64,000 nucleotides of DNA. Source: Gammaproteobacteria bacterium. GTDB lineage: Bacteria; Pseudomonadota; Gammaproteobacteria; JABCZS01. The notes beneath the pieces were generated by a model. The model was not told the DNA's origin and did no database searches. It saw only the letters and a list, made by a program, of their open reading frames with translations. Made by a program: the position numbers and the translations under genes. Position 1 is the first letter of the stretch. Each line of letters begins with the position of its first letter. Positions 14,040-36,392 of this stretch are shown piece by piece. The DNA is taken from contig JBIOEA010000007.1 in NCBI GenBank assembly GCA_044445605.1, positions 3,073-67,072 on the forward strand. Reading direction: 5' to 3'.

Positions 14040-14058
14040 GGGCAAATAATATTTGCCC
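14040..14058. terminator. Palindrome GGGCAAATA-A-TATTTGCCC between convergent genes (possible bidirectional terminator)
   Basis: 19-nt near-perfect palindrome directly after the stop at 14039, touching the ptrB stop at 14058. No clear U-run. Confidence 0.3.
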
Positions 14059-16070: not shown

Positions 16071-16257
16071 GATTCTGTCCTTGGTTCGTGGGAGGATTAT
16101 ACCTCATAGCGAAAAATCTTTCGCCTTTTTCAAAAGGCGGTTGTTCCTCGCTCACTTTATTTGACGTTCATGTCTCTCTCTGCCACTCGATTAAAACTCT
16201 TAACCTGAATTTGCGGAACTATGTATAATATGCGCACTCCAATAAAAGGAAAATAAG

Positions 16258-17664
16258 ATGGATATTCAATATGTTGAAACACTGATCAAGCAAGGCGAAT
16301 CCCACACCTTGGAATTCAAAACCTCTATGACGCAGCTTAAACCTGCATTAGAAACACTGTGTGCTTTTTTAAATGCTGATGGTGGGGTAGTCGCAATCGG
16401 AGTAAATGACAAGGGTGGAATCAAAGGGCAAACGATCACTGATAAAACGAAACAGGAGATTGCATTCGAAATTGGCAAAATTGAACCTGCTGATCATATT
16501 GCAGTGGAATATGTCCCTGTCGATGCTGACAAGATTGTCATTATCTTGCGAGTCAACAAAGGAGCACATGCCCCCTATGTTTATGACGGAAGGCCATATC
16601 AGCGCGAGCAATCTACGACCCATAGAATGACTCGCCATAAATATGATCAGCTTGTTTCTCTGCGTTATCAAATAAACTTTTCTTGGGAAAGTTTTGTTTC
16701 TGTTTGTGATATGAGTGACATAGATCATGAGCGTTTTAGATGGTTTACTGAAAGTGCGGTTTCCTTAAATCGATTGCCTAAAATATCCTTGGTGGACTCT
16801 GGAACTAAAATTTTAGAAAAGCTTCAATTATTAAGGGATGGAAAATTGATAAATGCAGCTGTTGTTTTGTTTGGTAAAAAGCAGCTTTCGAATTATTTGC
16901 AATGTCATCTAAAAATTGCACGATTTAAAGGTTTAACAAGAAAAGAGTTTCTAGATAACCAAGGTGTCTATGGAAATGCTTTTGACCTGTTCGATGCCGG
17001 CATGGCTTTTGTTGATAAGCACTTGCCAATTTCAGCAAAAATTGATCCAGTCTCATTGCGGCGTATCGATAAACCGCTCATACCATATGGTGCGATCAGA
17101 GAGGCTCTTGTTAATGCAATTTGCCATAGGGACTATAGTATCTACGGCGGCGCAATTTATTTGGCAATCTATGATGACAGGATGGAAATCTTTAACCATG
17201 GTGGATTGCAGCAAGGAACATCGCTAGAAATGATTAAATCCGGTTACTCACAATTGAGAAATAAAAAAATTGCAGAAGTGCTTTATAAGGTTGGCTATAT
17301 TGAGCAGTGGGGCAGAGGAATTCAGGATATCATTTCAAGCTGTGTGGCTGCAGGCGATCCAGAACCTGAATTTGAGGTTCAATGGAGCAACCAATTTAAA
17401 GTGGTCTTTAAATTTCCTAGCAGTATAGCTCCTCCAATTATTTTTCAGGAGGACAGCCCGAATCTATTGACTGAACGACAAAAGAAAATTATTTCTATTT
17501 TGCAACAGGGTGGGGGTGTGACGAAGGAATCAATATTGACAAATTGTTCAGGCGAACTTTCAGAGCGGACATTGCGTAGGGAGTTACAAATTCTGAAAAA
17601 TCTAAATATATTAGAGGTAATTGGTAGAGGCGCTAATGCAAGGTGGCATCTTATAAAAGAGTAA
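16258..17664 (+). CDS. Schlafen-like AlbA_2 domain / HATPase_c_4 / C-terminal wHTH protein (often mis-annotated 'RecG-like helicase' or 'ATP-binding protein')
   Basis: 468 aa. N-terminus ESHTLEFKTS...LCAFLNADGGVVAIGV is the AlbA_2 signature. AIREALVNAICHRDYSIYGGAIYLAIYDDRMEIFNHGG is the HATPase_c_4 signature. The C-terminus LSERTLRRELQILKNLNILEVIGRG is wHTH-like. Confidence 0.8.
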   Translation: MDIQYVETLIKQGESHTLEFKTSMTQLKPALETLCAFLNADGGVVAIGVNDKGGIKGQTITDKTKQEIAFEIGKIEPADHIAVEYVPVDADKIVIILRVNKGAHAPYVYDGRPYQREQSTTHRMTRHKYDQLVSLRYQINFSWESFVSVCDMSDIDHERFRWFTESAVSLNRLPKISLVDSGTKILEKLQLLRDGKLINAAVVLFGKKQLSNYLQCHLKIARFKGLTRKEFLDNQGVYGNAFDLFDAGMAFVDKHLPISAKIDPVSLRRIDKPLIPYGAIREALVNAICHRDYSIYGGAIYLAIYDDRMEIFNHGGLQQGTSLEMIKSGYSQLRNKKIAEVLYKVGYIEQWGRGIQDIISSCVAAGDPEPEFEVQWSNQFKVVFKFPSSIAPPIIFQEDSPNLLTERQKKIISILQQGGGVTKESILTNCSGELSERTLRRELQILKNLNILEVIGRGANARWHLIKE

Positions 17665-17686
17665 GCTGCTATCTCTATTTGATTTT

Positions 17687-17721
17687 CCGAGCGGCCATCC
17701 GAGCGGCCATCCGAACGCCAT
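17687..17721. repeat. Non-coding tandem 12-mer CCGAGCGGCCAT x2 plus a degenerate third copy
   Basis: Read directly: ccgagcggccat ccgagcggccat ccgaacgccat, 23 nt after the stop of 16258..17664. Confidence 0.85.
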
Positions 17722-17797
17722 AAGCATTACACGGATTATGACGATTCGTAATGGGCTAATATATATGGAATTCTTTCGCCAGATTCTCAGGTTAATC

Positions 17798-19006
17798 TCA
17801 ATTATGCTTTGCTTTTTTAGCGCCTGGCATCATTTTCTCGAGTAACAGCGTTTTAATTTCTTCATCCTGAGTGAGGCCATAAGCAGTATTTCCTTCCTTA
17901 TTTTTATGATGTACATTCGCGCCGTTGTCTAATAAAAATTTGACAGCAGGAAGGTCGCCTTGGCTAGCTGTAAGCATCAGCAATGTTGCCGAGGTGTCCG
18001 GGCATACAATATCAAAGTTTGCTCCTGCATCAGCAAGAGCGTGCAGAATAGTCATATCATTTGGATCATAACCAGCACGTCCTACATAACCATTATTATT
18101 GACGGGTCTATTGCGCAGTAACAAGTATAAAATCAGAGCAGGCGGGAGTTCGGTGTTTTGTATGTTAGGATCGAATTTTAATTCATGAAGTAAATAGACA
18201 ACATTCTCCATCCTGTGCTCTAGAATAGCGAGGGGCAGCGCTCTGCTGAATACCCTGAAATCTATTTGATTGTATTTTGCAACAATGTGTTTGATAAGGA
18301 CAAGATTGGAATGTGTCAGGATCATTTCAGCGGCCGTCATGGCTTTGTATTGGGTATTGAGCGCGCTTTTCTTGTGCATTTCTTCTAGCAAAATACACAC
18401 AATGTTGATATCAATCATGGGTGATGACAGCGCATAAAGAATAGGCGGCAGATTATTTTCGTCAGCTGCAGTAGCATCAGCGCCTGCTTCTAATAACAAT
18501 TTAATAACATCCATATTTTTTTCTTTGATAGCCATATTCAGTGGTGATTCTTTTCCCTTAAGGGCAGCAAGTTTTGCTAATAAGGTTGCAAATGAACTGC
18601 GGATGGTAGACATGCGCTTAGGTTCAATAGGCTGTTTTAGAGGACTAGATACTGACAGATCATAGAGATTAATATCATCATTTTCGCTAATGTATAATCT
18701 TCTATCGAGCCTGATATCAATCCAACGGATAAGTTTGTATTTTTCTTTATAAGATTCGATCTCGGCTTCGCGGTACAGATTTTCATAATAATTGGCTTTG
18801 AACGTATTGATGTCCTGCGAGGACGTGGTCGTTGCAGGGATCGTGGGGGCAGGGCAGGGCAAATTGGGGAAGTCCCGCTTGAATAGATTCATCCACCGAG
18901 GCCAATAGTCATCCGTACGTTCTTTGTGATTTTTGATTTTTTCAAGTATCTTAATGACCTCTATGCTGCTCAACTGGTTGAATATATTAGAGTATTGATT
19001 AATCAT
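17798..19006 (-). CDS. Ankyrin-repeat protein, copy 1 (possible degenerate F-box-like N-terminus)
   Basis: 402 aa. ANK repeats: SPLNMAIKEKNMDVIKLLLEAGADATAAD, and TLLMLTASQGDLPAVKFLLDNGANVHHKNKEGNTAY. The N-terminal ~100 aa are nearly identical to the paralogue at 20492..21709. Confidence 0.85.
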   Translation of the reverse strand: MINQYSNIFNQLSSIEVIKILEKIKNHKERTDDYWPRWMNLFKRDFPNLPCPAPTIPATTTSSQDINTFKANYYENLYREAEIESYKEKYKLIRWIDIRLDRRLYISENDDINLYDLSVSSPLKQPIEPKRMSTIRSSFATLLAKLAALKGKESPLNMAIKEKNMDVIKLLLEAGADATAADENNLPPILYALSSPMIDINIVCILLEEMHKKSALNTQYKAMTAAEMILTHSNLVLIKHIVAKYNQIDFRVFSRALPLAILEHRMENVVYLLHELKFDPNIQNTELPPALILYLLLRNRPVNNNGYVGRAGYDPNDMTILHALADAGANFDIVCPDTSATLLMLTASQGDLPAVKFLLDNGANVHHKNKEGNTAYGLTQDEEIKTLLLEKMMPGAKKAKHN

Positions 19007-19032
19007 GGGGTCACCTCTGCGTATGTGTCAGT

Positions 19033-19061
19033 TTTATACCACGTTTCATGGCAAAGTTCAA
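19033..19061 (-). promoter_or_regulatory. Predicted sigma70 promoter of ankyrin gene copy 1: TTGAAC-17 nt-TATAAA
   Basis: On the minus strand, TTGAAC (19061..19056), a 17-nt spacer, then TATAAA (19038..19033), about 27 nt upstream of the ATG. Hexamers and spacing are conserved upstream of copy 2. Confidence 0.45.
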
Positions 19062-19148
19062 CTGTCTTTTCCCCTCTTCGGAAGAGGATAACCTTGTTTT
19101 CCCACTTTGTCAGGGGTATGATAGTGGGGCGTTTGCCCAGGAGCGTAC

Positions 19149-20489
19149 ATGCATCAATTTTTCGGATCATCGTCCAAAGCGCCTCTCTTAAAAACAGATC
19201 GCGAGACACAAACGGCTGCTTTTCAAAGGGTAGCTACGTTTGCCAAAAAATTAGAAAAACAGGTTGAGCAATTAGTCATAAAATATCCTTCCCCTAGTAC
19301 GTTGGTACGCGTCCCTGCAGATAAATTAAAGAATACATTAACAGATTATCGCAGTAAACTCGCGCTCGCCGCGAAAAATAATAGTGATGTTGAGAAGATC
19401 AAAGTTCATTTAGATTTTTTGCATGAAGTTTTGTACGATGAAATACTTTTTTCATACATTACCGTCCCAATGTTTGTTGATAACCTCGGAGTCGCCTTGC
19501 GCAGAGGCGGCTATTTTCGCAAGATTTATCAATACGATCCCGCTTGTCTTGGTGAACCATTTAATTGGAAAGTAAGGAAAACCAATCAACATGGCAGGAC
19601 AGTTGGAAATTTTGTCATGCTAGAAGATTGGGAAAAAGATTTAAATCAGTTTTATAGAGATATTGTGTCAGATATGAAAAAGCTGCCTGAGACAGGCGCG
19701 CTAAATTCCGTTGATAAAATCATTTCAGATTGGGTTGATGAATATGAGTTCAAGGAACTACCTGATTTGCCACGTGAATATCCTCCTGCTGACAACATGC
19801 GTGAAGTGCAGAGGCAGCCTCAACAAAATAATGGCGTTGAACCTCCGCAATTTCAACAAGTGCAGAGGCAGCCTCAACAAAATAATGGCGTCGAACCTCC
19901 GCAATTTCAACCCTTCATCGCGTACGATGCGTATAAAGGAACTCTTTTCCTTACTCAAAGCATTGCTTGTATACTTGGGGGCTTTACAGGGGAAGATGTT
20001 TGTCGCCCTGAGAGTGAAGATGAACTTTCAGCGCAGGTATTTGCCTACGGGATTGGGTTAGTTATTGGCGCAGGTTTGCTGTGTGTGGGATACGTTAATC
20101 GCCAGCCTATCAAGGAACGCGTATCCTATTATGCTGACAGAACATGGCGGAATTTATTTCCTGCGCGTCCTGCTGCGGAAGATAGACCACCTATCTGGGA
20201 AAACCCTGGTATCCCATGGATATGGTATGCGGGGAGTGTCGCATCAGGCTCATGTGTGGGCATGACTATTGCGTCGATGACGGCAGGGAGTCTTGGATTG
20301 ACATCTGCTCAGCGCTCCGATACGGGTGAGGTGATCGGTTCAACGCTCACTTCCGAAGGGTGGATGTATTTCGCAGGGTTAACCGTTGGGGCCAGCCTAT
20401 TTTTCCTCGCTCTGCTCTGTCATAAATCCATTGAAACCGCATGCGAGCGCATAGGCGATAGAGTGCGTGGGAATAATCGCCCAGGTTAA
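19149..20489 (+). CDS. Hypothetical membrane protein, family 'M' copy 2 (soluble N-domain, Q/P-rich tandem repeat linker, multi-TM glycine-rich C-domain)
   Basis: 446 aa, paralogue of 12975..14039. Contains the 18-aa repeat VQRQPQQNNGVEPPQFQ(Q/P) x2 and several G/A-rich TM segments (GIGLVIGAGLLCVGYV, SVASGSCVGMTIASMTAGSLG, FAGLTVGASLFFLALLC). Confidence 0.6.
   Translation: MHQFFGSSSKAPLLKTDRETQTAAFQRVATFAKKLEKQVEQLVIKYPSPSTLVRVPADKLKNTLTDYRSKLALAAKNNSDVEKIKVHLDFLHEVLYDEILFSYITVPMFVDNLGVALRRGGYFRKIYQYDPACLGEPFNWKVRKTNQHGRTVGNFVMLEDWEKDLNQFYRDIVSDMKKLPETGALNSVDKIISDWVDEYEFKELPDLPREYPPADNMREVQRQPQQNNGVEPPQFQQVQRQPQQNNGVEPPQFQPFIAYDAYKGTLFLTQSIACILGGFTGEDVCRPESEDELSAQVFAYGIGLVIGAGLLCVGYVNRQPIKERVSYYADRTWRNLFPARPAAEDRPPIWENPGIPWIWYAGSVASGSCVGMTIASMTAGSLGLTSAQRSDTGEVIGSTLTSEGWMYFAGLTVGASLFFLALLCHKSIETACERIGDRVRGNNRPG
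19806..19913 (+). repeat. 54-bp tandem duplication (2 copies, a few mismatches) inside CDS
   Basis: gtgcagaggcagcctcaacaaaataatggcgt(t/c)gaacctccgcaatttcaac occurs twice back to back. Confidence 0.9.
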
Positions 20490-20491
20490 TC

Positions 20492-21709
20492 TCAATTAAG
20501 CTTTGCTTTTTTAGTGATGGGCATCATTTTCTCGAGTAAGAGCGTTTGGATTCCCTCATCCTCAGTAAGGTCGTAAGCGGTTTCCCCTTTCTTATTTTCA
20601 AGACGTACATTCGCGCCATTGTCCAATAAAAATTTGACAGCAGGAAGATCGTTTTGTTTGGTTGCAAGCATCAGCAAAGTGAGCGAAGATTCGGGTATTG
20701 CACTATCGAAGTTTGCTCCTGCATCAGCAAAAGCGCGCAGAATAGTCATATCTTCTGGATCATAGTCCGTACGGCCTACATAACCTTTATTTTCGACAGG
20801 TTTATGACGCAGAAGCAAGTATACATGCAGAAGGGATGGGCCATCATTGTTATGCATGTTAGGATCGAATTTTAATTCACGGAGTAAATAGCTAACATGC
20901 TCTGCTTTATGCTGCTCAATGGCGACGAGGATGGCAGTGGTGAATGCATTGAAATCTATGTGGGCGTATTTAGCGACAATGAGTTTTATATCGTCAATAT
21001 TGGGGTGTGTCAGGACCATTTCAGCGGCCGTCATGGTTTTGTATGGGATATTGAGTGCATTTCTCTTGTGCATTGCCTCCAACAAAATGCATACAATGTT
21101 GATATTAACCTCGGTTGATGTGAGTGCATAATAAATAGGCGGCTGATTATCGTTGTCTGCTGCCGTAGCATCGGCGCCTGCTTCTAATAACAATAGAATA
21201 GCATCCATGTATCCTTCTGTAATAGCGATATTAAGTGGTGATTCTTTTCTTTTAGGGTTGACAAGTTTTGTTAATATCCTTGCGCATGTGCGGCGGATGC
21301 GAGACATGAATTTAGGCGTAATAGGTTTTTCGTCACCACACTCATCATAATAACGCAGTTTCAGATCAAAGAGAGTATCATCCTGTTTGATAGAGTATAA
21401 TTTTTCATGGAGCTGGTCACCAATCCAAAAGATGAGTTTAATTTTATCTAAATAAGATTCGATCTCGGCTTCGCGGTACAGATTTTCATAATAATTAGCT
21501 TTGAACGTATTGATGTCCTGCGGGGACGTGGTCGTTGCAGGGATCGTGAGGGCAGGGCAGGGTAAATTGGGGAAGTCCCGCTTGAATAGATTCATCCATC
21601 GGGGCCAATAATCATCCGTACTTACTTTATCCTTTTTGTTTTTTTCAAGTATATTAATGACATGCATGCTGTCCAACTGGTTGAATATATTAGAATATTG
21701 ATTAATCAT
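20492..21709 (-). CDS. Ankyrin-repeat protein, copy 2 (paralogue of 17798..19006)
   Basis: 405 aa. N-terminus MINQYSNIFNQL..DDYWPRWMNLFKRDFPNLPCPA and C-terminus FLLDNGANV...LLLEKMMP..KKAK.N are shared with copy 1. The middle of the protein has diverged. Confidence 0.85.
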   Translation of the reverse strand: MINQYSNIFNQLDSMHVINILEKNKKDKVSTDDYWPRWMNLFKRDFPNLPCPALTIPATTTSPQDINTFKANYYENLYREAEIESYLDKIKLIFWIGDQLHEKLYSIKQDDTLFDLKLRYYDECGDEKPITPKFMSRIRRTCARILTKLVNPKRKESPLNIAITEGYMDAILLLLEAGADATAADNDNQPPIYYALTSTEVNINIVCILLEAMHKRNALNIPYKTMTAAEMVLTHPNIDDIKLIVAKYAHIDFNAFTTAILVAIEQHKAEHVSYLLRELKFDPNMHNNDGPSLLHVYLLLRHKPVENKGYVGRTDYDPEDMTILRAFADAGANFDSAIPESSLTLLMLATKQNDLPAVKFLLDNGANVRLENKKGETAYDLTEDEGIQTLLLEKMMPITKKAKLN

Positions 21710-21735
21710 GGTGGCGCCTCTTCGTATGTGTTAGC

Positions 21736-21764
21736 TTTATACCACTTTTTATGACAAAGTTCAA
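21736..21764 (-). promoter_or_regulatory. Predicted sigma70 promoter of ankyrin gene copy 2: TTGAAC-17 nt-TATAAA
   Basis: Same hexamers and spacing as at 19033..19061. Homology between the two upstream regions extends about 70 nt beyond the ATG. Confidence 0.45.
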
Positions 21765-21816
21765 CTGCTGACAGGGAGGTAGGAGCAGGGCAATCGCATC
21801 TAATTTCAGGACTGTA

Positions 21817-21937
21817 TCAGGCCGCAGGCCTGTGAGATGTAGCCCTGGGTTAGGAGCGCAACGTAACCCAGGGTAATATTCTAGGAGGCCAACGGCCTCA
21901 ACGTAAACATAAATAAAGAATGTAGCGCTGCAGGCGC
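21817..21937. repeat. Cluster of four REP-like hairpins: CAGGCC-gca-GGCCTG, CCCTGGGTTA-n11-TAACCCAGGG, GAGGCC-aac-GGCCTC, GCGC-tgcag-GCGC
   Basis: Read directly. The same hairpin modules occur in both arms of the element at 56129..58459 (in a different order), and the first also at 63244..63276. Confidence 0.8.
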
Positions 21938-21948
21938 GAAAGAAATTA

Positions 21949-22989
21949 TTAGCAGCAGGTATTTAATCTGCATGAATCTCCGCCTGGAAGAGATCTTTTA
22001 TTACCTAAGATTGGCTTATTTATTTCGAGATTCGGGTATTTCTTCTGAAGCTCCTCAAGCCGGTAAAATGAGCTAACCTCTAATTCATTTTTACCAAAAT
22101 CAATCTTTTTTAAGGCGCCGAGATTCCCTTTGTGAAGCAAAGCATCGACAATCGTGTCCACATCTCTTGATGAAAGAGTCATATCTGCCAAATGAAGATT
22201 TTCTAATGTATTATTTTGCTGCAATGCTCTTGAAAGCATGAGAGCTCCCTCACCCATCTTATTGTCTGATAAGACAAGTGTCTTCCAGCAAGTATTTACA
22301 GCAAGTACTTCAGCAATGTTAACGATCTCCTTTCCTTCATCATCAAGCGAATATTTGAAGCTGACCGCTGTTAATTTCTTGTTTTCTTTAAGCGCCTGCA
22401 TAATAGGCTCCATTTTGCTGCCTTTGCCGCAATAAAATGAAAATTCGCGCAAGGAAGCTGTCTTTAAAACGTCCGCTAATTGTTGAGATACATCATTCGT
22501 ATTTTTATCTATGTTTGTGCTCCCGTTAAAATCAAATGATTGTACGCGGTCTTGGCCAGCCAGCGCTGTGAGCAATGCAACGATAGAATGAGAAGCAAGG
22601 CCATTTGTATACATGTCTACGTGAACTAAACTATCTTGATGCTTGATAAGGTATGCATAAGCATCAACCGTTTGCGCTGGCAAATCGCGAATCTCTAGAA
22701 GGGCCATGCTTCGTGCGACAATGTTATATGGGCTGGCAGTGCCACCTTGAATATAAAAAAAATCCACCCATTTAGGATCTGCTACGGATGTTAATGATGT
22801 GTTATTGGAGAGATTTTTGTTAAGTTGAACGAGGTTTTCGGTGGCTGATACGTAATCTTTGTTATTGATATCTTTGTTTAGTGCTTCTTTTAAAGATTGT
22901 GCCGGTGTTTTCGATTGGGCATTATATGAATACATGTAGAAACCTCCAGTTTGCTCGTATATAACTGTTGTAGTATTTCCTTTTTGCAT
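21949..22989 (-). CDS. Leucine-rich repeat protein, ribonuclease-inhibitor (RNI/RanGAP-like) type, C-terminal -CC
   Basis: 346 aa. About 28-aa repeats: WKTLVLSDNKMGEGALMLSRALQQNNTLENLHLADMTLSSRDVDTIVDALL..LKKIDFGKNEL. The C-terminus is ...GGDSCRLNTCC. Confidence 0.7.
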   Translation of the reverse strand: MQKGNTTTVIYEQTGGFYMYSYNAQSKTPAQSLKEALNKDINNKDYVSATENLVQLNKNLSNNTSLTSVADPKWVDFFYIQGGTASPYNIVARSMALLEIRDLPAQTVDAYAYLIKHQDSLVHVDMYTNGLASHSIVALLTALAGQDRVQSFDFNGSTNIDKNTNDVSQQLADVLKTASLREFSFYCGKGSKMEPIMQALKENKKLTAVSFKYSLDDEGKEIVNIAEVLAVNTCWKTLVLSDNKMGEGALMLSRALQQNNTLENLHLADMTLSSRDVDTIVDALLHKGNLGALKKIDFGKNELEVSSFYRLEELQKKYPNLEINKPILGNKRSLPGGDSCRLNTCC

Positions 22990-23031
22990 GAGGCTGTCAA
23001 TGGGGACGTTATCTGCTCATGTTACAATCTA

Positions 23032-23172
23032 CCATTGACAATTTGGCGGTATTTGATAAGGTGTAGGTATGAAATCAATCCTGTTAACGGTCAATCGTCG
23101 CCTTGCGAGAACACTAAAACCCACGCTTAAAGAACGCGTCCTCTCTTGGGATGACTTCTTACTTGAGTTGTT
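23032..23172 (+). repeat. Direct repeat copy 1 (141 bp): duplicate of 37 bp of addB upstream region (candidate promoter) plus addB codons 1-34
   Basis: 140/141 identical to 24841..24981. The single c/t difference is in ccacg(c/t)ttaaag. Confidence 0.95.
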
Positions 23173-23212
23173 AAATTTGTGTCGTGAAGATTTTCAAAAG
23201 AATGGAGGATAA
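23069..23212 (+). pseudogene. Truncated 5' fragment of addB (47 codons, then stop)
   Basis: Translates as MKSILLTVNRRLARTLKPTLKERVLSWDDFLLEL, then diverges (LNLCREDFQKNGG*). Identical to the AddB N-terminus at 24878 except T20->L. Confidence 0.85.
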
Positions 23213-23264
23213 CACATGCGCGGCTATGATAAGTTTGGCTGTACTGTTTCTGTGGAGTGTATGA

Positions 23265-24797
23265 ATGTCCAATAAATTGCCAATCAACATTGACGATCTT
23301 TTGCGGCAGCGCACCGTTGAAGGTGAACGTATCGAGTATAAAACAGGCTGGAATCCGGATCCAATTCTGCGGACAATTTGCGCATTTGCCAATGATTTTG
23401 AAAACCTGGGTGGTGGTTATGTAGTGATTGGCCAAGGTTGTGATATAAATGGTCAACCAATGTTTCCACCGGTTGGCCTTGAAAATAATCAGCTCGATAA
23501 AATTCAGAAAGAATTGTTGGAGTATTGCCATTTAATTCAGCCGCCGTATTTCCCGGTGTTGAGTATCGAAAAAATTGCAGATCGTCACATAATGGTATTA
23601 TGGGCCCCTGGTGGGCAAAATCGTCCTTATAAAGTGCCATCCTCTGTCTCTAATAAGCATAAGATCTCGCATTACTACATTCGACGATATGCAAGTACGG
23701 TAGAGGCAAAAGGCGAAGCAGAGCAAGAATTATTGAGCTTAACGGCGAAAGTACCCTTTGATGATCGTTATGCGCAAACGGCTCGTATTACCGACTTATC
23801 GAAAGTACTGATGCAATCTTTTTTAACAGAGATTCGTAGCGATCTTGCTGATGATGCAGAAACATTATCCCTCGAAACACTGGGGCGTCAGATGAATGTA
23901 ATAGGTGGATCAGATGAAGCCCCGTTGCCAAAAAATGTGGGCTTGTTATTTTTCAACGACGCCCCTGATCGATTTTTTCCTTGGACACAAATTGATGTGT
24001 GCTGGTTCCCTGAAGGAGCAAGCGGTGATCGGTTTGATGAAAAAACATTTAAGGGTCCTTTGGCGCGGATGACGCGTGAAGCATTAGATTATATTCAGCG
24101 GAATTATTTATATGAGATAGTCGTGAAGCAAGATCAGAAGGCTGAAGCACAGCGATGTTGGAATTTCCCTTTTGCAGCCATAGAAGAGGCCGTTGTGAAT
24201 GCGGTATACCACCGCTCGTATGAAGAGCGTGAGCCAATCGAGGTGCGGATAAGTTATGATGAGCTGGTTGTCCTAAGTTTTCCAGGGCCAGACAGATCGA
24301 TCAAATTAGCTGATTTACAGGCAGGGCGTGCAGTAAGCCGACGGAATCGAAATCGCCGGATTGGCGAGTTTTTAAAAGAATTAGATTTAACCGAAGGCCG
24401 CTCTACCGGAGTGCCAAAGATCCTGAAAGTGATGGCAGTTAACGGCTCGCCTATGCCAATATTTGAAACGGATGGCGAACGGACATCTTTTTTGCTCAGG
24501 CTGCCTGTTCATCCGTTGGCGCTGGAGAGGGCTGCGGAACGCCAAGATCAGGCTACCATGGAAGTCACCATGGAAGTCACCATGGAAGTCATGGCATTAC
24601 TGAGGGTGGTGAAGGGGGAGACGAGTCGGCAGGTGCTACAAACGGCATTAGGGCTTAAAAATGTAGACCACTTCCGTAAAGCCTATATCTTACCGGCTAT
24701 TAAACAAGGTTATTTGGAAATGACCTTACCAGACATGCCTCAGAGCAGCAAGCAACGTTACCGTCTTACTGAGAAAGGAAGGAAAATTTTAGAATGA
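23265..24797 (+). CDS. Schlafen-like AlbA_2 domain / HATPase_c_4 / C-terminal wHTH protein, copy 2 (divergent)
   Basis: 510 aa with EGERIEYKTGWNPD..ICAFANDFENLGGGYVVIG (AlbA_2) and AIEEAVVNAVYHRSYEEREPIEVRISYDELVVLSFPGP (HATPase_c_4). The C-terminus QRYRLTEKGRKIL is wHTH-like. Contains an in-frame (TMEV)x3 repeat. Confidence 0.8.
   Translation: MSNKLPINIDDLLRQRTVEGERIEYKTGWNPDPILRTICAFANDFENLGGGYVVIGQGCDINGQPMFPPVGLENNQLDKIQKELLEYCHLIQPPYFPVLSIEKIADRHIMVLWAPGGQNRPYKVPSSVSNKHKISHYYIRRYASTVEAKGEAEQELLSLTAKVPFDDRYAQTARITDLSKVLMQSFLTEIRSDLADDAETLSLETLGRQMNVIGGSDEAPLPKNVGLLFFNDAPDRFFPWTQIDVCWFPEGASGDRFDEKTFKGPLARMTREALDYIQRNYLYEIVVKQDQKAEAQRCWNFPFAAIEEAVVNAVYHRSYEEREPIEVRISYDELVVLSFPGPDRSIKLADLQAGRAVSRRNRNRRIGEFLKELDLTEGRSTGVPKILKVMAVNGSPMPIFETDGERTSFLLRLPVHPLALERAAERQDQATMEVTMEVTMEVMALLRVVKGETSRQVLQTALGLKNVDHFRKAYILPAIKQGYLEMTLPDMPQSSKQRYRLTEKGRKILE
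24555..24594 (+). repeat. In-frame tandem 12-mer ACCATGGAAGTC x3.3
   Basis: Read directly. Encodes TMEVTMEVTMEVM. Confidence 0.9.
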
Positions 24798-24840
24798 GAT
24801 TAAAAGAGAAAGTTGTGGTAATCCTCGGTGGTGGCAGCTG

Positions 24841-24981
24841 CCATTGACAATTTGGCGGTATTTGATAAGGTGTAGGTATGAAATCAATCCTGTTAACGGT
24901 CAATCGTCGCCTTGCGAGAACACTAAAACCCACGTTTAAAGAACGCGTCCTCTCTTGGGATGACTTCTTACTTGAGTTGTT
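24841..24981 (+). repeat. Direct repeat copy 2 (141 bp), at the true addB 5' end
   Basis: See 23032..23172. The offset between copies is 1809 bp. Confidence 0.95.
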
Positions 24982-27355
24982 TGAATTGAACCGTGCCGCC
25001 ACGCAGTCATCATCATGGCGGTTATCTCCGATGCAGGAAAAAATGTTATGGGCCAAAGCCATGGACGATTTTCCTACGTTTGGTTTTGCCCGAGAACAAA
25101 CGATTGAATGTGCACGGGATGCTTATACCCTGGTCAAAGCCTATCAATTAAAATCAGCCTCATTAGTAGGATACAAAGAAGACAGCGATTTATTTGCAAA
25201 GGCCTTAGCGCGTTTTGAAACACAATGCAGCGAATTAAATGCTTTTGCTGGGGCTGCACTCATTGAACAATTATTGTTGTTTCCCTCCATGACATTGCCC
25301 TGTGATCATTTGTTATGTTATGGGTTTGATGAATGGACACCCGCGCAGCAATCGTTAATTGCGCAGTGGGAAAGGTTGGGTGTGACAATTGAACGGATGC
25401 CTCAGATATCCCGACGAGGAACAACGTGCAAGGTCATCGCAGAAGATGCGCACGATGAAATGCGCCGTGCCGCTCTGCAAGCTAAAGCCGCCTATGATCG
25501 AGGCGAAACAATGGCCATTGTCGTCCCTCAGTTACAAGATCAATGGTGTTTTGTTGAGCACTTATTAGCAGAGGTATTCAATCCAGATTTTTATTTCCCG
25601 GGTGTGCCCGCTAAAGATATTCCCTATAATATTTCATCGGGCGCATCGCTTGATAAACAACCTATTATTTATTGTCTTCTTGAAACATTTAAAACGTTAG
25701 ATAAAGAAACCAGCGTTCAAGCATGGAGCAATATCTTGCATTCACCCTATATCAAGGGAGGATGTACCGAGGCGGCTGCTCGGGCAGTTTTTGACATGGC
25801 ATTGCGTGATAAGCAATTGCTGACGATGACACTCAAGACTGTCCAATCAAATAGATTGATTCCGCCACTGTTTGCCTTGCAGTGTGTTCAGGTAGAAGCG
25901 TTCAAGAAATCATTATCATCACGCACGATGCGAGATTGGATCGTGTGGTTAAAAGATTGGATGGATGGTTGGGGCTGGGCGCAAGAGCGCACGCTTAACA
26001 GTGCAGAGTATCAATGCGTTGACACCTTGCATGAAGTGATTCCGAGTTTATATGCGCTGGATGCGATTCATCCCGCGTTCGCTTTCAACGCCTTCATCGA
26101 TGCTTTATATGGCTTATTAAAAAACACGTTATTCCAAACTGAAACGCAAGATAAACCCATTCAAGTATTAGGCTTGTTGGAAGCCGCGGGGTTATCATTC
26201 GATCATGTTTGGGTCATTGGGTTGACAGCAGATAATAATCCCGCGAAAGCCATGCCACATCCCTTTATTCCCACGCATGTGCAAGTCAGTCATGATATGC
26301 CCCACAGTACACCCGAGCGAGAATTGCGTGTGGCACAACGTTTACTCGAGCGTTTGATCACGGGTGCTAATGATGTTGTGCTTTCTTATGCGGCACAGGA
26401 TGAGAAGGGCGAGCCACAACTTGAGAGCCCGTTAATTGCTTCATTCCCCATCAAAGAAATAACAAATGAAACACCAGAACGCATGCCATTAGCCATTGCC
26501 CATGCGCGCGATTTACATGCATATGAAGATTGGGTTGGATTGCCACTGACGGGCCATCACTTGAAAGGCGGTAATTCAGTCTTGAAAGATCAAGCTGCCT
26601 GTCCACACGCGGGTTATTTGAAGCATCGATTGATGGCACGTTCACCTAAACCACCCGTGATGGGTTTAAGCGCTCCGCAGCAAGGAACCGTGATACACCG
26701 TGTACTGGAAACGCTTTGGGCATCGATGAAAAACCGTACAGGATTAATGCGGCTTGATGAAGATGCGCTCTCGCAGGAAATCACGAAACACATTCAAACG
26801 GTGCTGGATCAGTGGGAGCCATCGTTATCTGCCTCAAATAAACTCATTGAATCCAAACGCATCTTGGATATTGTGACCGCATGGTTGACCTTTGAAAAAT
26901 CACGTCCCGATTTTGCCATCGAAAGTTTGGAGAAAAAGGTGGAAGTCACGTTGGGTGAATTGACGCTGACATTATCCATGGACCGCGTGGACTGCATTGG
27001 AGAGAATCAATTTTTCTTGATGGATTATAAAACAGGCGAAGCAAGTGTGGCTGATTGGGATATGCCGCGCATGAACGAACCGCAGCTTCCACTTTATGCT
27101 GCATTCATGACGCCTACTCCTGTGGGAATGGCGTTTGCGCGTTTGAAAAAGAACAGTATAGGCTTAGAAGGTTTGAGCAGCATTGAAAACTGGGATGAAT
27201 TATTAGCAAACTTTTGTCAAGATTTATTGATGCTCTCTGAAGAAGTGCAAGCGGGTTATGGCGCAACCGAACCTAAATATGCGCAACGCACCTGCGATAA
27301 GTGTGATTTGGTTTCGGGTTGTCGCTTTCATACAGGAGGTGTTTATGAAGGATGA
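24878..27355 (+). CDS. addB: AddB-type helicase-nuclease subunit (PD-(D/E)XK nuclease with Fe-S cysteine cluster)
   Basis: 825 aa. The C-terminus has the RecB-family nuclease motif MDYKTGE, flanked by a CPHAG... cysteine and C-x2-C-x5-C (CDKCDLVSGC). Its stop overlaps the addA start. Confidence 0.8.
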   Translation: MKSILLTVNRRLARTLKPTFKERVLSWDDFLLELFELNRAATQSSSWRLSPMQEKMLWAKAMDDFPTFGFAREQTIECARDAYTLVKAYQLKSASLVGYKEDSDLFAKALARFETQCSELNAFAGAALIEQLLLFPSMTLPCDHLLCYGFDEWTPAQQSLIAQWERLGVTIERMPQISRRGTTCKVIAEDAHDEMRRAALQAKAAYDRGETMAIVVPQLQDQWCFVEHLLAEVFNPDFYFPGVPAKDIPYNISSGASLDKQPIIYCLLETFKTLDKETSVQAWSNILHSPYIKGGCTEAAARAVFDMALRDKQLLTMTLKTVQSNRLIPPLFALQCVQVEAFKKSLSSRTMRDWIVWLKDWMDGWGWAQERTLNSAEYQCVDTLHEVIPSLYALDAIHPAFAFNAFIDALYGLLKNTLFQTETQDKPIQVLGLLEAAGLSFDHVWVIGLTADNNPAKAMPHPFIPTHVQVSHDMPHSTPERELRVAQRLLERLITGANDVVLSYAAQDEKGEPQLESPLIASFPIKEITNETPERMPLAIAHARDLHAYEDWVGLPLTGHHLKGGNSVLKDQAACPHAGYLKHRLMARSPKPPVMGLSAPQQGTVIHRVLETLWASMKNRTGLMRLDEDALSQEITKHIQTVLDQWEPSLSASNKLIESKRILDIVTAWLTFEKSRPDFAIESLEKKVEVTLGELTLTLSMDRVDCIGENQFFLMDYKTGEASVADWDMPRMNEPQLPLYAAFMTPTPVGMAFARLKKNSIGLEGLSSIENWDELLANFCQDLLMLSEEVQAGYGATEPKYAQRTCDKCDLVSGCRFHTGGVYEG

Positions 27356-30300
27356 TCTGATTCGTCGAGAAGCGCTTGACCCGTATCAATCGTTTATTGT
27401 TCAGGCGCCGGCAGGTTCGGGCAAGACACAATTATTAACATCGCGCATATTAAGTTTATTGGCGAGCCGTGTTCAAAAACCGGAATCCATTTTAGCCATC
27501 ACTTTCACACGCAAGGCAGCACAAGAAATGAAGCGCCGTGTGATGAAGGCATTGATGTTAGGGAAGGGGCCTGAGCCTGAAAAAGAACACGAAAAGGCAT
27601 TGTGGGCACTGGCAAACGCCGTGTTAGCCGTGGATGAAAAGTATCAGTGGCGATTGCTTGAAAACCCTCAGCGCCTGCGTATCATGACCATTGATGCATT
27701 GTGCAGCAGCATTACACATCAATTGCCGTTGTCCTCACGTTTGGGTGCCGATCCTAAACCGATTGAATCTTCGCGATCAACCTATATCAAAGCGGCGCAG
27801 CAAGCAATTCATCTTTTATTAGAGCAAGAAAACAGCGCATTAGAAACATTGCTCCTGCACTTGAATAACAATCAAGAAAAAGCGTCTGAATGGATTGCCA
27901 ACATGTTGTCTTCGCGCGAGCAATGGTTGCCATTATTATATGCTCAAGATCGTGACGATTTAACGAAACTACGTCGCACCTTAGAATCAAATATCGCCAT
28001 CGTCATACAAGAGACATTTGAAAAAACCATGGAGAAAACATGGGGGGTAGATTGGGATGGTTTATCGTTATACGTGTCATTTGCTGCTTCCAACCTTGAG
28101 TCTGCTTATGCTCAAGAAGTGATGGCATCATGGGTAGGGTTATCGCCGGACATCAGTGATTTCGATAAATGGCGTGCGTTATGCCGATGGATTTGCACAA
28201 AAGAAGGTGATTTGCGCAAGACGGTCGATAAGCGACAAGGTTTTCCGGCGAGTAGTAGCATTAAAGACAAAGAAGAAGCCGCACATGCGAAACAGATGAA
28301 AGAAGGTTTCATGGCCTGGCTAAACCATGTGAGAGAAGACGTTGATGCATGCGACGCACTGAGAGAATTAATCTCATTGCCTGATCCCATTTATTCAGAT
28401 CGCCAATGGGAAGTATTAAAGGCTTTATTTCACGTACTACCTGTGGCTGTTGAGCAATTGCATTTATTATTTGCCTCTCGCAGCGAAGTGGATTTTACAG
28501 CCATTGCGCGTTGCGCACTCACCGCATTGGGTGGTGATGGCGACCCGACCGATTTAGATCTCAAATTAGATGATACCCTGCATCATATTTTAGTCGATGA
28601 GTTTCAGGATACATCCAAGCCCCAATTTGAATTGATTCATCGTTTGGTTGCGTTTTGGGAAAATGACGGACAAAAAACATTGTTTTTGGTGGGTGATCCG
28701 ATGCAGTCGATCTACCGCTTTCGGCAGGCAGAAGTCGGCGGCTTCCTGCAGGCGCAATTATATGGCATGGGCCCCATTCCATTAAAGAGTGTGTCACTGA
28801 GTTCAAATTTCCGTTCTGAAAGGCCGGTCATTGATTGGATCAATGAACAAATGCCGCCGGCCTTTGCGCCTGAAGATGATATTTACATGGGCGCCATCAC
28901 CTATGCGCCATTTGAAGCGCAACATGATGCTTCACCGGGAGCGGGTGTTTATGTCGAACGTATCGCTGAAGAAGCGACTGAAGGGCCAGCCTTTTTGTCA
29001 ACGCTCACACGATTGCTGCAGGATAAAACCATCGAAACGATTGCCATTTTGGTGCGCAATCGCAATCATATTGAAGACATCTTGCCGACGTTACGGGCGG
29101 CAAAAATACCGTATCAAGCGGTTGATATGGAAAAAATCATTGAAACACCGTGTGTGCGTCAGTTATTCCAATTGACCCAAGCATATCTGAATGTGGCCAA
29201 TTCGCAAGCATGGATATCGGTATTGATGTCGCCTTATTGTGGGATGACATTATCGGATTTAACCCACTTAAAAAACAGTGCATCCACGTATTGGGAAGCA
29301 CTGCTGACGTGGAACACGATTGACGCCATTTCTGCTGATGGGAAATGGATATTGAGCCGTGTAGCGCCAATCTTAACAGCCTGGATGGCGAACAAAAATC
29401 GATTACCCATGGCTCAGGCGATTGAAGGCGTGTGGTTAGCGTTGGGTGGCCCAGCCTCATTGCCCACATTAGAAGGTGTTGCTGATGCCGAACCTTATTT
29501 TGATTTGTTATCTGAATGCGAGCAAGGTGGCACGCTGGATATCGAACAATTTAATGTTCGATTAGATAAACTGTTCTCAAAGGCATCGGGTGCGGCAAAC
29601 ATTCAGATCATGACGATTCACCATGCGAAGGGGTTAGAGTTTGATGCTGTCCTGATACCGGGATTGGAGCGTCAACCGAAATCTTCTGAAAAGCCGTTGT
29701 TACTGTGGGAGTCTTGTCCGATTGATTCAGGGCATGTCTTTTTATTTGCACCCATTCATCCGACGCAAGAAGACGTGGATCCCATTTACGAATATATTTG
29801 GAAGAAAAATAAAATTCGTGAAAAGAATGAAAATGCCCGCTTATTATATGTAGCGTTAACCAGGGCAAAAAAGCAGTTGTATTTGTTTGCCAAGGAAGTA
29901 AAGTCAAGGCCCAACAGTTTCATTGCCCTGATAGAGAATGCAGTGGCGGAACAAGCTTCACCTACGTCGCAGCCTAATGAATCATCTGCGCCCTGCAACG
30001 CTGAAATGATACCATTATCTTATGTTCTGAAACGCTTAAACCCAACGTGGGACAATCCCTATTTTTCACGTGACACTGCTATGGCGCTCGTGAGTGATGA
30101 CAAAGCGAATCCGATTGATATGAATGCGATATTGCCGTCGCAATTTGAGCACAAGACATTGGGGACGCTGATACACAAAGAATTATATTTATGGTCATTA
30201 GATCATGGGTTGATTAGCCAGTCGATTGAGAACCATCTGCCACGATGGCGTGCTATGCTGTTAGAATACGGTTTACCCGAAGTTCATTTAGATTGGGTGA

Positions 30301-30620
30301 AAACGGTGATGGCACGTGTTCAGGCTGATCCCACTGCGCAAGATATTTTATCGCCTCATCTGGATGCGCGAAGCGAATATGACATCACTGTTCAAGAAGA
30401 TGGGAAAGTGAAGACATACGTGATAGATAGAACCTATGTTGATAAAGATGGTGTGCGTGTGATTGTCGATTATAAGACAGCAGAGCATGCTGAGGGCTTT
30501 GAGAAGCATCGTGCACAATTAGAAGGCTATGCACGTGTTATGCGTACGTTAGAAGATAGGCCGATTCGATTGTGTTTATACTATCCATTAACAGGTGACA
30601 TTATCGTCAATAAACTATAA
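27345..30620 (+). CDS. addA: AddA-type UvrD/Rep helicase-nuclease subunit
   Basis: Start moved from the ORF-track 27258 to ATG 27345 (MKDDLIRREALDPYQSFIVQAPAGSGKTQLL, Walker A), which overlaps the addB stop (ATGAAGGATGA). Also has DEFQDTS (motif II), and a C-terminal VDYKT nuclease motif. Confidence 0.85.
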   Translation: MKDDLIRREALDPYQSFIVQAPAGSGKTQLLTSRILSLLASRVQKPESILAITFTRKAAQEMKRRVMKALMLGKGPEPEKEHEKALWALANAVLAVDEKYQWRLLENPQRLRIMTIDALCSSITHQLPLSSRLGADPKPIESSRSTYIKAAQQAIHLLLEQENSALETLLLHLNNNQEKASEWIANMLSSREQWLPLLYAQDRDDLTKLRRTLESNIAIVIQETFEKTMEKTWGVDWDGLSLYVSFAASNLESAYAQEVMASWVGLSPDISDFDKWRALCRWICTKEGDLRKTVDKRQGFPASSSIKDKEEAAHAKQMKEGFMAWLNHVREDVDACDALRELISLPDPIYSDRQWEVLKALFHVLPVAVEQLHLLFASRSEVDFTAIARCALTALGGDGDPTDLDLKLDDTLHHILVDEFQDTSKPQFELIHRLVAFWENDGQKTLFLVGDPMQSIYRFRQAEVGGFLQAQLYGMGPIPLKSVSLSSNFRSERPVIDWINEQMPPAFAPEDDIYMGAITYAPFEAQHDASPGAGVYVERIAEEATEGPAFLSTLTRLLQDKTIETIAILVRNRNHIEDILPTLRAAKIPYQAVDMEKIIETPCVRQLFQLTQAYLNVANSQAWISVLMSPYCGMTLSDLTHLKNSASTYWEALLTWNTIDAISADGKWILSRVAPILTAWMANKNRLPMAQAIEGVWLALGGPASLPTLEGVADAEPYFDLLSECEQGGTLDIEQFNVRLDKLFSKASGAANIQIMTIHHAKGLEFDAVLIPGLERQPKSSEKPLLLWESCPIDSGHVFLFAPIHPTQEDVDPIYEYIWKKNKIREKNENARLLYVALTRAKKQLYLFAKEVKSRPNSFIALIENAVAEQASPTSQPNESSAPCNAEMIPLSYVLKRLNPTWDNPYFSRDTAMALVSDDKANPIDMNAILPSQFEHKTLGTLIHKELYLWSLDHGLISQSIENHLPRWRAMLLEYGLPEVHLDWVKTVMARVQADPTAQDILSPHLDARSEYDITVQEDGKVKTYVIDRTYVDKDGVRVIVDYKTAEHAEGFEKHRAQLEGYARVMRTLEDRPIRLCLYYPLTGDIIVNKL

Positions 30621-33533: not shown

Positions 33534-33676
33534 GTCTTCTTCCTTGAAGGTATTCTTAAGGAAAGGATAGCTCAAAAAATGATATTTTTCCTCGCAAATG
33601 ACCATAGTTGGCAAATTGACACGCGAAGTTTCTCGTGGTACCCTGGCCACCTATTTGTACGCAGTTGGGGTGTTTC

Positions 33677-36226: not shown

Positions 36227-36392
36227 GTCATGGAACTGTAGAGAATAGGAGCGCTGTTACCACTCGTATCTGGAAAGCTTTCTAAAATCAAGAGTCAGGG
36301 ATGCGGCAACGCTTTGTTTTCATGTGCTATATTCGTATCAATGATCAATTGCGAATGGAAATTCACCTTAATAAGCCATGGAGGGCAAAAAA

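Follow-up and report, generated by a model that had tools for sequence, protein, structure and literature searches.

A Schlafen gene lies between two copies of the 5' end of an AddB-like gene

Within the window, the whole 64,000-nt stretch of gammaproteobacterial DNA analyzed here, a gene for a Schlafen-type protein (pSlfn#2) sits between two long direct repeats (R1 and R2) ahead of an operon that encodes AddB-like and AddA-like proteins and a 5'-nucleotidase. The features on which our analysis builds are as follows.

16071..24840, no strand: variable region of 8.8 kb between a peptidase S9 gene (14058-16070, minus strand) and the AddB-like gene, from tblastx synteny
23032..23172, plus strand: R1, the left repeat copy, native addB upstream region (-37) to coding nucleotide +104, from self-comparison
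23035..23062, plus strand: candidate promoter, TTGACA (23035-23040), a 16-nt spacer ending in TGA and TAAGGT (23057-23062), from conservation
23069..23212, plus strand: 47-codon stub ORF, AddB residues 1-34 followed by 13 foreign codons, from ORF and translation
23173..24840, plus strand: inserted segment, 1,668 bp, GC 45%, host-like codon usage, from self-comparison and composition
23265..24797, plus strand: pSlfn#2, a Schlafen-GHKL ATPase-wHTH protein of 510 aa, from Pfam, PADLOC domain-level matches, PDB sequence matches and translation
24555..24591, plus strand: 12-nt tandem repeat ACCATGGAAGTC, 3.1 copies, translated as (T)MEV repeats in the linker that precedes the wHTH, from sequence
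24794..24847, plus strand: putative truncated start of a neighbouring gene (MRLKEKVVVILGGGS...), ATGA overlap with the pSlfn#2 stop, cut after codon 15 at the R2 junction, from translation
24841..24981, plus strand: R2, the right repeat copy, running on into the intact AddB-like gene, from self-comparison
24878..27355, plus strand: AddB-like PD-(D/E)XK protein, 825 aa, TIGR03623, from Pfam and a TIGRFAM-type profile
27345..30620, plus strand: AddA-like UvrD/PD-(D/E)XK helicase-nuclease, 1,091 aa counted from the recorded start, from Pfam
30632..31507, plus strand: 5'-nucleotidase (PF06189), the conserved third operon gene in relatives, from Pfam and relatives

An earlier interpretation of this locus, made from the letters alone (the sequence-only reading), had reported direct repeats at 23032-23172 and 24841-24981, and a self-comparison of the window reproduces them exactly, each 141 nt long and identical at 140 of 141 positions. 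Their content is likewise as described: each copy holds 37 bp 5' of an ATG (at 23069 in R1 and 24878 in R2), including a TTGACA hexamer (23035-23040 and 24844-24849, respectively), followed by 104 coding nucleotides of the AddB-like gene. We also recover the 47-codon addB stub in R1, and the only long ORF between the repeats, 23265-24797, is intact and is confirmed by a Pfam search as the single AlbA_2/HATPase_c_4 gene that had been proposed there. The sole mismatch between the copies, C at 23126 versus T at 24935, specifies Leu or Phe at AddB codon 20. Since the next-best self-matches of the repeat region within the window are only 12-13 nt long, a 141-nt repeat at 99% identity cannot have arisen by chance. 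The repeat breaks off sharply on the left; on the right, 8 of the 14 bases immediately following the edge still agree (post-hoc p about 0.03), which hints weakly at the kind of similarity expected at a microhomology joint. No LexA box was seen by eye in the repeat, and Rfam gave no match in the region of the insertion.

The inserted segment consists of 92 bp of upstream sequence, the complete Schlafen gene and the first 15 codons of what appears to be a next gene. We infer that this short ORF is a gene start, as it would encode a Rossmann-like Gly-rich loop and is preceded by an SD-like AAGGAAGG; no counterpart was found in the window or in loci L001-L010. By this make-up, the insert resembles a fragment taken out of a different setting. 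In GC content and codon usage, the inserted gene lies within the host range, so that the donor was compositionally similar and possibly of the same lineage, though the best homologues are only 70-76% identical. Neither a recombinase, a tRNA nor terminal inverted repeats were found in the insert, and the interval 21000-27000 contains no inverted repeats of at least 20 nt. Neither the insert nor its truncated end ORF recurs elsewhere in the window, and no near match to the insert was detected in plasmids or viral contigs, the latter also lacking relatives. Similarly, searches of the window, plasmids, viral contigs, genomes and metagenomes did not reveal a donor that carries the addB homology segment. 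A second Schlafen gene in the window (16258-17664) was considered as the source and rejected, being only 22% identical to pSlfn#2.

pSlfn#2 has the architecture of a common Schlafen class

The protein has three Pfam domains. An N-terminal SLFN_AlbA_2 domain (PF04326; residues 19-148, 42.2 bits versus a gathering score of 25.3) is followed by a GHKL ATPase domain, HATPase_c_4 (PF13749; residues 324-407, 34.7 bits versus 26), both families named in the sequence-only reading, and by a C-terminal Fic-like_C winged helix-turn-helix (residues 441-502, 74.3 bits versus 27); all three score above the Pfam gathering thresholds. Matches to PDB sequences concern separate domains, among them the C-terminus of 4rgl, which matches the C-terminal HTH with E = 9e-12. 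The translation contains EGERIEYK at residues 19-26 (E19-GERI-E24-Y-K26), an Ex4ExK nuclease motif; Ex4(E/D)xK is the catalytic motif of prokaryotic Schlafen proteins (PMC13056530). In PADLOC, residues 32-435 align with positions 55-454 of the pAgo model, corresponding to the SLFN-GHKL part of SLFN-pAgo, and the region as a whole returns domain-level matches only and no defined defence system. The start codon is preceded by GGAG 7 nt upstream.

On the strength of its domain order, pSlfn#2 is a member of the common pSlfn-HisKinase-HTH or Schlatpase-HTH class described in 2026 (PMC13056530; bioRxiv 10.64898/2026.05.29.728809) and no new system. It shares with this class the N-terminal SLFN_AlbA_2 domain with Ex4ExK, the PF13749 GHKL ATPase, the short C-terminal winged HTH, a length of about 500 aa and the occurrence of homologues in islands and type I restriction-modification loci. 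It differs in that the gene in the window precedes an AddAB-like operon, which is not a usual context. Schlafen nucleases act in defence as tRNA-cleaving effectors that carry fused sensors (PMC13056530; bioRxiv 10.64898/2026.05.29.728809), and by family membership pSlfn#2 is most likely an autonomous, ATP-switched effector of this kind. However, mechanistic work covers Ago-fused or Ig-fused relatives and not this class, and the HisKinase-type pSlfn genes assayed in E. coli gave no phage protection (PMC13056530), so that a role of the class in defence is only putative.

The AddB-like operon and its duplicated candidate promoter

The gene downstream of R2 had been labelled addB. Our profile searches support an AddAB-like nuclease subunit with an AddA partner but not the AddB equivalog itself: the protein scores 614 bits against TIGR03623 ("probable DNA repair protein"; cut-off 299.6) and 67 bits against PDDEXK_1, and fails the addB_alphas model (55 bits versus a cut-off of 486.5). 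C575, C806, C809 and C815 as well as D716-Y717-K718 are invariant across nine aligned sequences, and the four cysteines would form the set of an Fe-S "staple" that is predicted to bind a cluster. The AddA-like gene encodes UvrD-helicase, UvrD_C and PDDEXK_1 domains, and the AddB-AddA pair is kept in relatives.

The proposal that the addB promoter was duplicated stands in part. The arrangement of TTGACA, a 16-nt spacer (with TG), TAAGGT and an SD-like TAAGGTG, which overlaps the TAAGGT, is conserved upstream of addB between the window and its relative L006, and the same element recurs in R2 at 24844-24871. No convincing terminator was found between R1 and addB, and the 92-bp leader of pSlfn#2 contains no promoter-like site of its own. 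A consensus promoter scan, by contrast, called no promoter within the repeat. Taken together, duplication of a candidate addB promoter is plausible, and pSlfn#2 is probably transcribed from the R1 copy, with transcription reading through into addBA.

The site upstream of addB is variable among relatives

The sequence-only reading had suggested looking for an empty site in related genomes, and such a site exists. In L006 and L007, whose AddB proteins are 75% identical to that of the window, and in L011 (49%), peptidase S9 and addB are direct divergent neighbours, separated by 118 nt in L006, and both the Schlafen gene and the entire variable region are missing according to tblastx synteny; the empty site is thus seen in relatives at an AddB identity of 75% or less. 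Comparison with L006 and L008 further shows that the native upstream flank runs directly into R1, and R2 into native addB. Altogether, the seven related loci compared at the addB site display five distinct gene arrangements. L009 and L010 carry a co-oriented RHH-ParE pair 13 nt 5' of addB, L012 has two co-oriented genes of no known kind, and L008 has a co-oriented 182-aa ORF, the insertion of which removed the addB ATG.

The variable region in the window contains other duplications, namely ankyrin gene paralogues with 82-86% nucleotide identity and a 54-nt tandem duplication, and by this measure the insertion site borders a duplication-prone, variable accessory region. The upstream gene that had been read as encoding leucine-rich repeats has no Pfam match, and a Pfam scan that covered the insert and genes of the variable region detected no phage integrase or resolvase domain. 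As in accessory and defence hotspots, conserved genes frame the site (shikimate genes and peptidase S9 to one side, addB-addA-nucleotidase to the other), and the cargo varies among relatives from none to a TA pair, unknown genes, or Schlafen and ankyrin genes. In contrast to such hotspots, most of the cargo has no defence annotation, and the ankyrin genes would be more in keeping with host-interaction cargo than with an island devoted to defence alone. The comparison points to a variable site for accessory genes between the S9 peptidase gene and addB in a lineage of uncultured Gammaproteobacteria.

Origin of the insertion

On balance, we favour the view that the 5' end of the AddB-like gene underwent a genuine insertion-duplication in the recent evolutionary past, brought about by additive recombination together with one illegitimate joint, although our confidence in this reading is moderate. 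The insert is bounded by two copies of one contiguous target segment, and its outer flanks are colinear with the empty site of the relatives. A 1,668-bp piece excised from another context would have been added in such a way that addB -37 to +104 now stands on both sides. The most economical route would be additive recombination via addB homology with a single illegitimate joint at 23172|23173. The incoming molecule would have been either a 1.8-kb circle, which entered by Campbell-type single-crossover integration, or a linear piece with addB as its anchor, as in homology-facilitated illegitimate recombination. As a result, R2 would still provide addB-addA-nucleotidase with its own start codon, ribosome-binding site and putative promoter, while the 47-codon AddB stub arose in R1, and recombination between the two 141-bp repeats could delete the insert again. 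Repeats of this length are long enough for RecA-dependent excision.

The order of target homology, insert and target homology, with the target gene left intact, is what Campbell-type integration and homology-facilitated illegitimate recombination share with this locus. They differ from it in that the insert encodes no vector-like functions and has no known circular or plasmid donor, and the homology segment would have had to become linked to foreign DNA in an illegitimate step. The Campbell-type integration put forward in the sequence-only reading is borne out in its repeat/insert/repeat geometry and colinear flanks, whereas the donor molecule was searched for and not found. That reading had also judged the duplication far too long for a transposase target-site duplication, and we agree: transposons and IS elements likewise leave direct repeats of target sequence around an insert, but of 2-15 bp rather than 141 bp, and here a truncated gene occupies the insert end and there is no transposase or other recombinase, no terminal inverted repeat and no inverted repeat of at least 20 nt. 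Transposon, integron-like and integrase readings were rejected on the lack of inverted repeats, recombinase or tRNA. Moreover, no long flanking repeats were found around other cargo upstream of addB or around the homologues of pSlfn#2, and the linkage does not recur; the arrangement is consequently a one-off event in this genome.

If it is real, the insertion-duplication would illustrate how a single defence-type gene can move without mobile-element machinery, via homology with a core gene that stays intact, lends a copy of its promoter and, through the repeats, allows precise loss.

An origin without homologous recombination is possible but unlikely. A linear fragment could have been end-joined into a staggered break with nicks 141 nt apart (at -37 and +104) that was then filled in, leaving a genuine though very long target-site duplication, which would agree with the abrupt edges of both repeats, with the resemblance of the insert to a random genomic fragment with a truncated end gene and with the lack of mobile-element features. 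It would, however, take two illegitimate joints instead of one, and the weak similarity past the right edge fits a homology-guided joint slightly better.

We also consider it improbable that the structure stems from faulty assembly or processing, or from a population polymorphism that was mis-joined. In that case the genome, or most of the population, would have the empty site, and the 1.8-kb unit would be a separate or minority molecule threaded in via the shared 141 nt. The source is a metagenome-assembled genome (MAG) contig of 67,382 nt from NCBI, 141 is the default largest k of MEGAHIT, a widely used metagenome assembler, and repeat-insert-repeat is how a looped path in an assembly graph looks. 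In addition, pSlfn#2 is absent from a collection of 15 billion proteins with any of five start codons, where nothing matches it at more than 76% identity, and it is the only absentee among the neighbourhood genes looked up, 11 others being on record. Against this, the copies differ at one base, so R1 and R2 are not one collapsed graph node. This base lies 95 nt into the repeat and should phase each copy with its own unique flanks, linking flank-R1-insert and insert-R2-addB for k-mers or reads above about 95 nt; a simple graph artefact is less likely for this reason. Furthermore, the junction 23172|23173 shares no long k-mer with the rest of the window, the codon usage of the insert is host-like, and R2 preserves both the AddB reading frame and the upstream element, a biologically coherent outcome. 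Exact look-ups of the Schlafen and AddB proteins led to no other contig. Genomes scanned with AddB and metagenomes scanned with a 26-nt repeat pattern yielded no match; an alignment-based genome scan recovered only two MAGs at about 50% identity, and a metagenome scan only relatives at 25-35% identity. As no second assembly of the species came out of these genome and metagenome scans, the structure rests on a single MAG contig.

Relationship between pSlfn#2 and AddAB

The position of the gene invites a broader view that would combine three elements: a border between variable region and addB that recurrently captures genes under the AddAB-like promoter (Schlafen here, ParE-RHH in L009, unknown genes in L008 and L012), a pSlfn#2 that acts as a PrrC-like guard of AddAB, and a 141-bp duplication that is the footprint of homology-driven capture sparing the operon. 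We regard this combined picture as very unlikely, and one of its elements, the guard-type arrangement advanced by the sequence-only reading, found no backing in recurrent linkage. According to the guard idea, the Schlafen protein would be co-regulated with AddAB and fire when phage inhibitors disable the enzyme, in analogy to retron Ec48 and RecBCD or to PrrC and its type I enzyme. RecBCD guards are known from the literature, as is the guard role of PrrC. The gene for PrrC sits inside the hsd locus, and homologues of pSlfn#2 often occupy the same position within type I restriction-modification loci. The idea also gains from the defence activity of Schlafen nucleases as tRNA-cleaving effectors with fused sensors, and from the placement of pSlfn#2 directly ahead of addBA in the same orientation, probably as part of one transcription unit. 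Like the retron Ec48-RecBCD and PrrC-EcoprrI systems, the locus would thus pair a candidate abortive-infection nuclease with a DNA-end-processing enzyme that is commonly inhibited by phages. The association is not conserved. A Schlafen gene occurs in the flanks of none of 35 other addB-like loci, and in the closest relatives of the operon the site is either without a gene or filled by unrelated cargo. Conversely, the best protein homologues of pSlfn#2 (70-76% identical) have unrelated flanks, and the 11 loci with close homologues lie in integrase islands, beside NACHT/KAP NTPases or in type I restriction-modification loci, with addAB near none of them. These counts leave the guard idea unsupported. 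The junctions, with a truncated neighbour gene and a stub ORF, look accidental. Nor is adjacency in itself evidence of guarding, since the known RecBCD guard, retron Ec48, was characterized functionally, through phage inhibitors and recB deletion, and not by linkage to recBCD. As far as conservation of gene order can tell, nothing ties pSlfn#2 to AddAB specifically, and we consider a guard function highly improbable.

Hardly credible, finally, is a decayed integrase-borne island that targeted the 5' end of addB and supplied a replacement copy, with the 141-bp repeats as attL and attR: such elements typically leave direct repeats in which a gene end is duplicated and the gene itself preserved, some phages integrate into icd and restore its end, and the closest homologue of pSlfn#2 (P0002) adjoins a tyrosine integrase, but no integrase or recombinase was found between the repeats or in the variable-region genes scanned, the insert measures only 1.67 kb and ends in a truncated gene, and the cargo upstream of addB in relatives has no flanking repeats.

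As a separate observation on the homologues, the (T)MEV tandem array in the linker before the wHTH is longer in homologue P0001 (locus L001) than in pSlfn#2.

The start of addB is duplicated around an inserted Schlafen gene

We find that the beginning of the addB-like gene is present as two direct repeats, R1 (23032-23172) and R2 (24841-24981), which are identical at 140 of 141 nt and differ only at 23126 (C) versus 24935 (T). Each copy comprises 37 bp 5' of an ATG (23069 or 24878) and then the opening 104 nt of the reading frame; R1 runs on directly from the native upstream flank, and R2 leads into the native addB, giving the order target segment, insert, target segment. Between the two lie 1,668 bp (23173-24840), in which the sole long ORF is at 23265-24797. 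These repeat coordinates and this identity, a 47-codon addB stub and a single gene between the copies had all been reported in the sequence-only reading, and each was recovered. The features discussed are as follows.

16258-17664, + strand: second Schlafen-GHKL gene, 468 aa; SLFN_AlbA_2 66 bits, HATPase_c_4 78 bits; motif ESHTLEFK
23069-23212, + strand: stub ORF, 47 codons (34 of AddB and 13 foreign), R1 running into the insert
23265-24797, + strand: inserted Schlafen gene, 510 aa
24794, + strand: start of a second ORF, beginning MRLKEKVVVILGGGS, overlapping the Schlafen stop by ATGA and cut by the R2 junction
24878-27355, + strand: AddB-like gene, 825 aa, PD-(D/E)XK domain; intact via the right copy despite its interrupted look

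The event was probably a single rearrangement at a variable site and, because only one substitution has accumulated in 141 bp, probably a recent one. This agrees with the earlier proposal of a non-transposase insertion-duplication that kept addB intact and duplicated its upstream element. The left repeat edge is sharp; past the one on the right, identity continues at 8 of 14 bases (post-hoc p ~0.03). The shortest route would combine homologous recombination in addB with one illegitimate joint, at 23172|23173, where there is weak microhomology; the incoming DNA would have been either a 1.8-kb circle that entered by a single crossover or a linear fragment anchored by homology. Entry of the insert at a staggered break of 141 nt, followed by fill-in, would yield an identical product but requires two illegitimate joints, and we consider it unlikely. 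Repeats of this length should permit RecA-dependent precise loss, so the 1.8-kb unit may be polymorphic.

The structure was read from one MAG contig of 67,382 nt, and the repeat is as long as the largest k that MEGAHIT uses by default (141). That coincidence would fit an assembly artefact or mis-phased polymorphism, as might the absence of the inserted Schlafen protein, with any of five start codons, from a 15-billion protein collection, in which exact look-ups found 11 neighbourhood products on the same contig (the peptidase, the other Schlafen, both ankyrin, the 446-aa and 328-aa proteins, AddB, AddA, the nucleotidase and two further neighbours); it is the only looked-up neighbourhood gene whose product is missing. 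However, R1 and R2 differ at one base, this mismatch lies 95 nt into the repeat, so that any read or k-mer exceeding about 95 nt ties it to unique flanking sequence on both sides, no long word of the junctions recurs in the window, and the codon usage of the insert is host-like, all of which makes an artefact quite improbable.

The insert carries a common Schlafen-ATPase gene

The inserted protein scores above the Pfam gathering thresholds for SLFN_AlbA_2 (residues 19-148), HATPase_c_4, a GHKL ATPase domain (324-407), and a Fic-like_C winged helix (441-502), so that the AlbA_2/HATPase_c_4 assignment made from sequence alone is upheld by HMM search. Its EGERIEYK (residues 19-26) matches Ex4(E/D)xK, the nuclease motif of prokaryotic Schlafens (PMC13056530). 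The architecture is among the two commonest Schlafen classes: the 'HisKinase-HTH' class makes up 19.2% of pSlfns (PMC13056530), and the 'Schlatpase' supradomain with a short C-terminal HTH is the majority form (bioRxiv 10.64898/2026.05.29.728809). Within this very common Schlafen-ATPase class, which was described only recently, the gene is an ordinary member. HisKinase-class members assayed in E. coli gave no protection (PMC13056530), so we can only infer the biochemical role of the class. A PADLOC pAgo-model match is confined to the SLFN-GHKL part. The linker before the wHTH contains a 12-nt tandem repeat, ACCATGGAAGTC, encoding TMEV (24555-24591); in P0001, the top-scoring homologue at 640 aa, the same repeat shows strong expansion (locus L001, 11297-11711), so that the family has a linker of variable length.

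No inverted repeats of at least 20 nt, recombinase or tRNA were found in the insert and, given the cut-off ORF start at its right end, it looks like a piece torn from a larger operon rather than a defined mobile element. Its GC content (45%) and codon usage fall within the range of other window genes. The best homologues are 70-76% identical, with nothing above 76% in a 5.8-billion-sequence database, and the DNA flanking the closest ones is unrelated to the window. On this evidence the probable source of the fragment is the same lineage or one of similar composition. Neither a donor copy elsewhere in the window nor a near match in plasmids or viral contigs was found.

The interval between peptidase S9 and addB is a variable accessory site

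All knowledge of the organism comes from metagenomes, and the named records closest to it are 'uncultured Gammaproteobacteria' MAGs with AddB ~50% identical. The sequence-only reading had suggested looking for an empty site in related genomes, and one is seen in the addB-like loci L006/L007 (AddB 75% identical) and L011, where peptidase S9 is the direct divergent neighbour of addB (118 nt apart in L006). In the window peptidase S9 ends at 16070, which leaves 8.8 kb (16071-24840) extra relative to these loci, containing a second Schlafen-GHKL gene, two paralogous ankyrin genes, two Pfam-less genes and the insertion. The second Schlafen gene (16258-17664), at the opposite end of the region and adjoining peptidase S9, shares just 22% identity with the inserted one.

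Other relatives carry different cargo. An RHH antitoxin and ParE toxin pair, co-oriented with addB, lies between S9 and addB in L009 (7904-8490) and L010 (6059-6645), ending 13 nt 5' of the addB ATG, and two co-oriented unknown genes directly precede addB in L012. In L008 (AddB 67% identical; region 560-660) a Pfam-less, co-oriented 182-aa ORF ends at the addB start-codon position; its insertion removed the ATG, the upstream element is likewise missing, and addB as called begins at a TTG 12 codons further in. No flanking repeats were found around the cargo of L008, L009/L010 or L012. Since the cargo differs and lacks such repeats, the S9-addB interval is a site of variable accessory genes, at which the 141-bp duplication is a one-off.

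The ankyrin genes (17788-19006 and 20482-21709, - strand) share 82-86% nucleotide identity and lie ~2.7 kb apart, which points to an older segmental duplication within the variable region; one matches the PADLOC candidate model PDC-M72A. The Pfam-less 446-aa gene contains a 54-nt tandem duplication (19804-19911, 98% identity).

The AddAB-like operon and its transcription

The AddB-like protein belongs to TIGR03623, 'probable DNA repair protein' (614 bits against a cut-off of 299.6), and falls below the cut-off of the AddB equivalog models in a profile search. Cys 575, 806, 809 and 815 and a D-Y-K motif are invariant across nine aligned relatives and form the predicted AddB-type nuclease and iron-staple pattern. 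Downstream follow a UvrD/PD-(D/E)XK helicase-nuclease and a PF06189 5'-nucleotidase, an order kept in L006, L008 and L009, the relatives readable that far. 'AddAB-like' is therefore a fair label, yet for a distinct subfamily.

Within the 37 bp that precede the ATG lie TTGACA and, after 16 nt ending TG-A, TAAGGT; TAAGGTG, placed 5 nt ahead of the start codon, doubles as a well-matching Shine-Dalgarno sequence. These elements are conserved in L006, whereas sequence farther upstream is not. A consensus scan made no promoter call in the repeat, since TAAGGT agrees with the consensus at just 3 of 6 positions. As the same scan found no promoter-like site on the + strand of the 92-bp Schlafen leader, and a terminator scan nothing convincing between R1 and addB, it is reasonable to infer that the Schlafen gene would be transcribed from the R1 copy with read-through into addBA. 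The leader also holds a 19-codon ORF, MRGYDKFGCTVSVECMNVQ (23216-23275, + strand), overlapping the Schlafen start codon, which could be a leader peptide or chance.

The earlier suggestion that the Schlafen protein guards AddAB gains no support from gene neighbourhoods: a Schlafen gene occurs in the flanks of none of 35 other addB-like loci (L006-L012, L019-L046), and addAB was not found beside homologues of the inserted gene in any of the 11 loci that carry them. Those neighbourhoods contain an integrase and NikA-like gene or NACHT/KAP NTPases, or lie inside type I restriction-modification loci. Adjacency to addAB weighs little in any case, because retron Ec48, a known RecBCD guard, was established as such by functional tests and not by recBCD linkage. 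The frequent type I restriction-modification position of the family recalls PrrC, whose gene lies within such a locus; this analogy may offer a lead for the Schlafen family in general, not for this locus.

Other features of the window

Relative to L009, L011 and L012, where a DUF3579 gene directly follows the 5'-nucleotidase, the window has a second extra region of ~7 kb (31521-38650), with an alkyl sulfatase (also in L008), an 863-aa unknown gene, an FAD/BBE oxidase and a MetA-pathway porin-like gene. A group II intron lies at ~56100-58480 (Rfam D1-D4 56383-56626, domain V-VI 58179-58255), bracketed by 82-nt inverted repeats (56109-56190 and 58398-58479, 90% complementary); its RT/maturase ORF (56831-58162) departs furthest from typical codon usage among the window genes.
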